NCBI RefSeq assembly: GCF_030013595.1
Contig: NZ_CP122768.1
Strand: one strand, 5' to 3'
Source: Escherichia coli
GTDB lineage: Bacteria; Pseudomonadota; Gammaproteobacteria; Enterobacterales; Enterobacteriaceae
DNA: 64,000 nucleotides
Every line of letters starts with the position of its first letter. Within the stretch, counting starts at the first letter, position 1. Below the pieces are notes generated by a model. The model had not been told where the DNA came from and did no database searches. It worked only from the letters and a program-made list of their open reading frames with translations. Position numbers and translations under genes: made by a program. Shown piece by piece: positions 63,804-64,000 of the stretch.

Positions 63804-63859
63804 TAGGAAGTAAGTTTTATGTTGACGGCACAGTCAACTTGGCATAGATTAATTAAACC

Positions 63860-63921
63860 AAGCCCAGCCCCGTTCGCAGACAATTGTTAATATCTGCATA
63901 ACGGCTCTGGGCTATTTTTTT
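63860..63921 (+). terminator. putative terminator downstream of cI
   Basis: stem AGCCCAG...CTGGGCT enclosing a sub-hairpin, followed by TTTTTTT. Confidence 0.45.
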
Positions 63922-63931
63922 GGGACTCTTA

Positions 63932-64000
63932 TGAAGAAAGCAGCAATTTTAATTGATGCGGGTTTTTTCATGCAGCGTGTTCATGCTACGCATCGTAAAC
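63932..64000 (+). CDS. 5' end of an ORF in the rex position, truncated by window edge
   Basis: ATG then MKKAAILIDAGFFMQRVHATHRK..., open to the window end; only ~23 codons visible. Confidence 0.3.

Follow-up and report, generated by a model that had tools for sequence, protein, structure and literature searches.

The right-hand end of a 64,000-nucleotide (nt) stretch of Escherichia coli DNA (contig NZ_CP122768.1, assembly GCF_030013595.1; this whole stretch is referred to below as the window) raises the question of which gene has taken the position held by rexAB in lambda, how it is expressed and what it might do for its carrier. Between the stop codon of the cI repressor gene and the edge of the window there are a predicted promoter, a hairpin followed by a run of U residues, and the first codons of an open reading frame (ORF). 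We consider the chances a little better than even for the account as a whole, in which this ORF begins a single-gene cassette that has taken the rexAB place, after cI and ahead of the backbone terminator Timm, with an attenuating leader and a nuclease that most likely serves the exclusion of other phages; as regards the identity of the gene, a predicted NYN nuclease, and the architecture of the cassette as described here, our confidence is high. The elements of the locus are as follows (positions in the window).

63144..63803, + strand: cI repressor gene, from the ORF list; upstream neighbour of the cassette, with stop codon TGA at 63801-63803
63821..63838, no strand: palindrome GTTGAC-N6-GTCAAC, overlapping the -35 box of the cassette
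63822..63850, + strand: predicted sigma-70 promoter, with -35 box TTGACG (63822-63827), 17-nt spacer and -10 box TAGATT (63845-63850)
63861..63913, + strand: leader hairpin, a terminator stem of the tR' class, with three stacked helices and a 12-nt loop
63915..63921, + strand: U-run (T7), with one A between stem and run; it completes the signature of an intrinsic terminator
63931..64000, + strand: start of the NYN nuclease ORF, 23 codons, cut by the end of the window; the catalytic Asp9 lies inside the window

The hairpin and T-run that an initial annotation had reported after cI were found there when the sequence was read directly. The new ORF that it placed behind them is also present and runs off the window, with the correction that its start lies at 63931, one base before the implied 63932; the ATG (63931-63933) opens MKKAAILIDAGFFMQRVHATHRK and follows the U-run by 10 nt. 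According to a consensus scan of the identical DNA of locus L002, the end of the predicted promoter and the start of the hairpin are likewise 10 nt apart. Taken alone, the open frame of 23 codons is not significant.

The intact gene and its carriers

Over its last 301 bases, the window agrees at 100% with 273 complete E. coli genomes and with the phages ev099 and E212. In ev099, E212 and strain 214-4 the frame extends to 285 codons (an 858-nt ORF), and these three copies are base-for-base identical; early closure of the frame, set beforehand as a refutation of the initial annotation, was not seen in the closest relatives. Over the last 8 kb of the window the closest relative is E212 (99.7%), and because the E212 gene is intact, the window's own copy is probably intact beyond base 64000 as well. 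The expectation that the gene and any partners would continue beyond the window held for the gene, which attains its full length in identical relatives, and failed for the partners: after the stop codon there come, in the relatives, a terminator, then oL/pL and then N, with no second gene. This terminator, whose homolog in mEp234 is annotated as Timm, thus belongs to the phage backbone, and it is common to phages with other cargo.

The cassette was present in 276 of the 5426 complete E. coli genomes (5%), at full length in only 73. In about 200 of the 276, mostly O157:H7, the gene is cut after codon ~116 by the insertion sequence (IS) IS1203/IS629; these cut copies reside in a decayed thrW prophage, behind a lambda-immunity cI (e.g., strain SS17, locus L022, 3628-5250). 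It should be added that the IS-cut O157:H7 copies retain promoter and hairpin; the short hairpin RNA, but no nuclease, is thus expected in these strains, which offer a natural control. Furthermore, 48 Stx2a-converting phages all encode the protein with 100% identity.

In many E. coli genomes, RefSeq annotation with PGAP splits the intact 858-nt gene into a partial 'pseudogene' and a protein of 117 amino acids (aa), WP_137413698.1, named 'NYN domain-containing protein'. The 'pseudogene' of strain 214-4 (NZ_CP025840; locus L001, 8232-9089) was rejected, and the split there is an annotation artefact, since its sequence does not differ from that of the intact gene in ev099. The RefSeq annotation of the intact gene needs correction in many E. 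coli genomes.

Occupancy of the slot between cI and N

The assignment of the ORF to the rex position was borne out, as the gene lies between cI and oL/pL/N and in ev099 replaces rexAB behind a cI of lambda immunity. The cI of ev099, 214-4 and O157 strain SS17 is the lambda-immunity repressor (237 aa, 99% identical to the cI of HK97 and mEp234), the operators are lambda-type and the cassette stands exactly at the lambda rexAB place. An apparent mismatch in ev099, of a lambda-like oL with a non-lambda cI, was dropped, its cI being truly of lambda immunity. In the window and in E212 the repressor is a natural hybrid that joins a non-lambda DNA-binding domain at the N-terminus to an S24 domain of lambda type at the C-terminus; RefSeq names it a LexA family protein. 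Compared with the ev099 repressor of lambda immunity, the window cI shows 71% identity and is near-identical from residue ~88 on. The operators of the window and E212 are non-lambda and match each other: those of oR in the window (63036-63143 region) are, e.g., TACAATATGTACTTT, and the same type was seen in oL of E212.

Matches of other E. coli prophages to the window end within a few bases of the cI stop. Behind the same or near-same cI there follow elsewhere a BRO protein, or a hypothetical protein with DUF1828, or two hypothetical proteins, or DUF3024 with a hypothetical protein and a Ser/Thr kinase, and in the imm-lambda phage mEp234 the cI-N slot holds hicAB. Among IMG/VR loci, the next gene upstream, in the same orientation, codes for a CI-like repressor in 35 of 78, and six quite different upstream repressors were confirmed by PHROGs. 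Cassette boundaries and presence/absence polymorphism were demonstrated behind several different repressors. With regard to the features of a moron, an autonomous cargo cassette of lambdoid phages, presence and absence alternate between homologous flanks, with junctions that directly follow the cI stop and directly precede Timm; an own promoter is predicted, at a conserved position; and the terminator after the ORF is Timm of the backbone, shared with phages of other cargo.

That other lambdoids keep alternative genes in this slot, as the initial annotation had supposed, agrees with the description of the cI-N interval as a hotspot of variable cargo, holding rexAB and bstA and including known exclusion genes (PMC8585504). 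The gene itself is known to databases without having been studied, and by position it is a counterpart of rexAB, stk, bstA and hicAB; like this cargo (rexAB, 933W stk, BTP1 bstA and mEp234 hicAB), the cassette varies between similar phages. In ev099 it shares with lambda rexAB the slot between cI and Timm/oL behind a lambda-immunity cI, yet rexAB encodes a sensor (RexA) and a membrane protein (RexB), whereas one ORF, for a soluble nuclease, was found between cI and Timm here, and family searches of its protein returned NYN-type matches only. Moreover, rexAB is co-transcribed with cI, whereas the cassette has a terminator after cI and a predicted promoter of its own, and it has no sequence kinship to cargo of the rexAB type.

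Apart from the cI-N slot, homologs occupy other cargo positions, namely convergent with Q near lysis genes, after ninG and after tail genes, and they were also found convergent with the integrase and on an Acinetobacter Rep3 plasmid. In Pseudomonas paraglycinae (locus L087, 2566-2762, - strand), Rfam detects, ~600 nt downstream of the NYN gene, a C4 antisense RNA together with its a1/b1 target, an immunity RNA of P1/P7 type; there, too, the homolog stands beside a phage immunity region.

A predicted NYN nuclease of broad distribution

The guess of an NYN/PIN-like nuclease, which had been ventured from 23 residues, proved correct for the full-length protein by its match to Pfam NYN and by structure comparison. 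The Pfam match (PF01936, E 1.1e-8) is restricted to residues 158-205; in PHROGs the whole protein falls into family 5783, of 'unknown function' (E 1.5e-119), and in NCBIfam it matched only TIGR00288 (E 5.5e-7), far under the cut-off of that model. All 120 homologs listed have either PF01936 or no Pfam match. No solved structure was detectable by sequence search alone. An AlphaFold2 model built from 31 homologs is confident (predicted local distance difference test, pLDDT, 86.4; predicted template modelling score, pTM, 0.78) and its fold is of the PIN-like alpha/beta kind; in structure comparison, NYN proteins come closest to it. Residues D9, D69, D164, D170, D189 and D191 are invariant in the 31 sequences, down to 41% identity, and the protein is therefore expected to be an active NYN (PIN-like, Mg-dependent) nuclease. 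Fold and aspartate active site are like those of the NYN nucleases of PF01936, such as MARF1 and the LabA-like VPA0982; the cassette protein differs from them by core insertions of ~90 family-specific residues and, in the enteric members, by a terminal tail that is basic and disordered.

PADLOC-DB v2 contained no full-length match to any established defence protein model. Weak partial matches were confined to the catalytic motif, to HEC-09 (E 2e-4, 46 residues) and to the NYN model PDLC01154 (E 1.4e-3); HEC-09 is an NYN candidate that protected against none of the phages tested (10.1101/2024.01.29.577857). No paper on this NYN family was found in the literature searched.

The family numbers 7035 proteins when clustered at 90% and 1344 representatives when clustered at 50%, and occurs in at least 591 species-representative genomes of Proteobacteria, Acidobacteria, Bacteroidales, Verrucomicrobia, Elusimicrobia and others, as well as in 532 IMG/VR contigs. 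Homologs are also present in Proteus, Burkholderia, Dorea, Streptococcus and Lactococcus phages. A Proteus homolog (L014-L016, 6001-6795) was observed at a fixed site convergent with glmS, in the Tn7 attachment neighbourhood, in at least 140 index blocks.

A conserved leader RNA that accompanies the nuclease gene

The hairpin folds with -25.0 kcal/mol, compared with -11.3 +/- 2.7 for dinucleotide shuffles (z = -5.1; 0 of 200 shuffles were as good). The base of its stem has 7 base pairs, 5 of them G-C, and is followed by A and U7, i.e., by the G+C-rich stem and U-run expected of a terminator; a simple terminator scan missed it because the loop limit of the scan was 8. The claim that the ORF is terminated separately from cI thus stands insofar as a terminator-like hairpin lies between the two, but this hairpin is not simply that of cI and forms a conserved part of the nuclease cassette. 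The same hairpin and U-run precede the ATG in Edwardsiella, Pseudomonas, Halomonas, Acinetobacter, Pasteurellaceae, Photorhabdus and Tatumella, in any upstream context, and both have been retained where the surroundings are unrelated and the homologous proteins are 46-58% identical; in leader types A to D, across phyla, the stem is followed by a U-run. By these sequence comparisons, the hairpin travels with the nuclease gene and not with cI.

In an alignment of 21 distinct leaders, 90% of the cells were paired (28-42% with the 3' partners slid), compensatory changes were seen in 14 of 19 pairs, a number reached in 0 of 500 shuffles, and the covariation score was 0.45 (0.23 shuffled; 0.07-0.14 slid). 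The covariance model R1, made of NYN leaders only, scores the window leader with 78.7 bits. G-U pairs, together with a strand asymmetry of ~50 bits, point to a structure at the RNA level, on the sense strand. The loop bases AAU..UUA are conserved while the stems covary, and such conservation of unpaired bases suggests that something may read the hairpin, either the nuclease itself or a host factor.

The promoter was compared in type-A leaders from enterics, Pseudomonas, Halomonas and Acinetobacter, and nearly all of the distinct ones have a TTGACN -35 box and a -10 box that ends 8-12 nt before the hairpin. The spacing from U-run to ATG is only 8-50 nt and leaves no space for a downstream promoter; transcripts of the nuclease gene must therefore begin shortly upstream of the hairpin and run across it. 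A palindrome TTGAC-N4-9-GTCAA lies over the -35 box in about half of the distinct leaders, including those of Edwardsiella, Pseudomonas and Tatumella; it could be an operator or a DNA/RNA hairpin.

A related hairpin (type C) is found before the gene in beta-/alpha-proteobacteria, Acidobacteria and Elusimicrobia, with the order outer stem, CAGUAMG, inner stem-loop, GCCGAMCC, outer stem and U-run. From a raw MAFFT alignment of type C, in which three rows were one column off, RNAalifold gave 3 pairs, and this alignment was replaced by a hand-specified structure and a covariance model. After realignment, 83% of the cells were paired and 14 of 16 pairs were compensatory, matched by 0 of 500 shuffles, in an alignment that is model-fitted and leans towards the structure. 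The type-C model also detects versions in Proteus/Marinomonas and Bacteroidales, always just upstream of the ORF.

In Rhodanobacter/Dyella (L041-L065) a G+C-rich 5' hairpin was observed ~60-100 nt upstream of the ORF, after a -10-like box, and these loci have a conserved CAUAAGGAUUUCCUAUG start region; the hairpin may be a non-terminating version of the leader.

Rfam 15 holds no family matching the window leader or a type-C leader (best E 3-10), and it gave no match at the leader position in 20 loci; the literature searched contained no description of the leader RNA. As far as these searches reach, the association of RNA and nuclease, and the kinship with tR' described in the following section, are newly described here.

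Homology to the lambda terminator tR'

A second member of the same RNA family is present in the window:

56239..56300, - strand: late terminator tR', downstream of a lambda-type Q gene

Model R1 matched this site, which is outside its seed, with 63.1 bits (E 1.5e-15), and lambda itself reaches 62.1 bits with the same model, built without tR'. Window positions 56520-56238 match lambda (J02459) 44499-44781 at 97.9%, and the R1 site equals lambda 44719-44780. These lambda positions are the terminator tR', at which the 194-nt '6S' RNA from pR' has its 3' end. In phage O276 the equivalent site is annotated as a terminator. The tR' of the window stands behind a lambda-type Q and before tRNA-Asn, tRNA-Thr and a holin gene. 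The two tRNA genes, tRNA-Thr (tgt) and tRNA-Asn (gtt), lie directly downstream of tR' (56080-56235, - strand), in an arrangement as in Kapi1 and mEp506.

A degenerate 26-mer of the conserved core, GTTCGYAGRYAATNNTTARNNYCTRC, had more than 120 matches in IMG/VR. Among the 80 loci that were classified, 55 lie behind a lambda-type Q (~5 more have flanks that are too short), 20 immediately before an NYN ORF and 0 elsewhere. Furthermore, in a diverged 6S/tR' region (L201) the hairpin has 55 of 58 bases in common with the Tatumella NYN leader; the flanks are lambda-like and no NYN-type promoter was found at this locus, so that the hairpin alone is shared. A hairpin of the NYN-leader type in lambda-like flanks means that the two contexts share and exchange one RNA element. 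Judged from these alignments, the leader hairpin is homologous to lambda tR'.

The promoter pR' is constitutively active in lysogens, and the tR'-terminated transcript accumulates as a short RNA; in Stx phages the pR' short RNA is a functional small RNA, whereas the lambda 6S RNA is without known function (PMC7547250). The cassette hairpin belongs by sequence and structure to the same RNA family as the 3' end of lambda 6S (tR') and the StxS-type pR' RNAs and, like tR', it lies shortly after a constitutive-looking promoter and would yield a short terminated RNA. In contrast to tR', however, it is ~3-10 nt and not ~130 nt from the predicted transcription start, it has no associated Q gene or qut-like element, a nuclease gene rather than the late operon is downstream, and its RNA family reaches far beyond lambdoid phages.

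The window and E212 carry both the leader hairpin and tR'. By analogy with BstA/aba, titration of the nuclease by a resident tR', as a form of self-immunity, was considered and rejected as a general rule, since ev099 and 2B8, with a different Q type, carry the cassette without a hairpin of the tR' class.

Proposed mode of action

In the mechanism that we propose, the hairpin would stop transcripts arriving from cI (pRM/pRE) and would also terminate most transcripts of the cassette's own promoter, yielding an abundant hairpin RNA of ~60 nt and a trickle of nuclease mRNA. A function of the hairpin as attenuator is somewhat more likely than not. The nuclease would be a ribonuclease (RNase) kept at a low or conditional level, and low expression independent of context would suit a potentially toxic enzyme that moves between genomes. 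The lysogen would gain an accessory function from it, with exclusion of other phages or abortive infection as the most likely one. Such a defence role is proposed because other cargo of the cI-N slot has such a function, and we put it forward tentatively, as an analogy with rather less than even chances.

Several observations weigh against this scheme as a whole. The loop and internal-loop bases are conserved beyond the need of a plain terminator, and the attenuator reading is thus probably incomplete. The Rhodanobacter/Dyella homologs, apparently inherited vertically, have a 5' hairpin without a U-run, and the window's own copy may be cut beyond base 64000. As regards defence, the PADLOC matches are weak and partial, and the NYN candidate among them, HEC-09, was inactive against all phages tested (10.1101/2024.01.29.577857). 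It should also be added that the Proteus homolog adjoins glmS, has no mobile neighbours and looks like a stable chromosomal gene, as does the gene throughout Rhodanobacter/Dyella; stable chromosomal members of this kind fit a housekeeping or selfish role as well as they fit defence.

Alternative explanations

The last of these points leads to the alternative that survives best, although we still regard it as unlikely: the protein may have no part in defence and be an RNA-processing or selfish nuclease that hitch-hikes in cargo slots, the terminator serving only as a context-independent insulator and dimmer; any gain for the lysogen would then be unrelated to phage exclusion. The very broad distribution over at least 591 species-representative genomes of several phyla, the stable chromosomal loci without mobile neighbours, the lack of a match to an established defence family together with the inactivity of HEC-09, and the loss by IS in ~200 O157:H7 genomes, where the gene is hence dispensable, all speak for it. 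However, unrelated prophages repeatedly carry the gene in slots that are classic for lysogenic conversion and defence, it also occurs on plasmids, it is fully conserved in the 48 Stx2a phages, and the other cargo of the same slot includes known exclusion genes.

A rather improbable alternative to attenuation in the service of exclusion is that the NYN protein binds or cleaves its own leader hairpin and so sets its own level, in the way that RNase E, RNase III and Regnase-1 set theirs; since lambda-type tR' is the same RNA, late transcripts of lambda type, of the resident or of an invader, may be a further target of the protein, in their 5' leader. The conservation of unpaired loop bases over covarying stems would fit such recognition, as would the restriction of GTTCGYAGRYAATNNTTARNNYCTRC, in the 80 IMG/VR loci classified, to sites before NYN genes or at tR' behind a lambda-type Q, the diverged tR' with the hairpin subtype of an NYN leader (55/58 bases) and the presence of both elements in the window and E212. 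Nevertheless, leader and tR' need not occur together, since ev099 and 2B8 carry the cassette but no hairpin of the tR' type; in lambda, tR' functions although no NYN gene is there; and the sharing could be the mere exchange of a good terminator between two lambdoid sites.

Less probable again is an RNA-antitoxin module resembling type III toxin-antitoxin (TA) systems, in which the abundant terminated hairpin RNA would bind and neutralise the NYN nuclease and decay of this labile RNA would free it; an infecting phage that stops host transcription would be the trigger, and the freed nuclease would kill the cell, as abortive infection, or stabilise the element. The order promoter, RNA, terminator and nuclease ORF is reportedly the hallmark of ToxIN-type systems, as Fineran in 2009 and Blower in 2012 are said to have described it. 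The cassette has this order of parts (promoter, hairpin with U7, and ATG 10 nt later) and, like ToxIN, CptIN and TenpIN, it occurs on phages and plasmids; the RNA co-travels with the nuclease gene across phyla, the conservation of loop and internal loop suggests recognition by a partner, and the gene is found on plasmids and prophages near other TA loci. The cassette fails, though, in two defining features, the repeats and the toxin fold: no tandem repeats were detected by Tandem Repeats Finder (0 rows, L002, 8000-9300), the leader being a single hairpin, and the fold is NYN and not that of ToxN/AbiQ; moreover, the chromosomal Rhodanobacteraceae homologs have no U-run.

Finally, that the hairpin is here only the terminator of cI and the ORF a dead remnant cut just past the window is very unlikely, for although ~200 of the 276 E. 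coli cassette genomes retain only the first ~116 codons, those copies belong to a decayed thrW prophage whose cI is of lambda immunity, whereas the window has a different cI, an apparently complete lambdoid late region and, in E212 (99.7%), a nearest relative with an intact gene.

Biological implications

The reading to which we return, a single-gene NYN cassette with an attenuating leader in the rexAB place, adds to a cI-N slot that already gave Rex, Stk and BstA an occupant that is a predicted active and unstudied nuclease. A structured RNA between promoter and start codon, kept across distant bacteria, is an unusual conserved architecture, and the leader RNA provides a cheap experimental handle on the restraint of a potentially toxic RNase. 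The kinship with tR' and 6S makes the old question of a further function of the 6S hairpin testable.

A bolder possibility, to which we give a low though not negligible likelihood, is that the hairpin and this NYN subfamily constitute an undescribed RNA-protein module extending over several phyla, in which the ~55-nt RNA would act as inhibitor, guide-like cofactor or autoregulatory target of the nuclease, the mobile copies would serve as an RNA-gated toxin or in abortive infection, and tR' would be a domesticated or exchanged copy. If this were true, the tR' hairpin familiar from lambda textbooks, in which the '6S RNA', regarded as function-less, has its 3' end, would be such a domesticated or exchanged copy of the leader that accompanies these nuclease genes.

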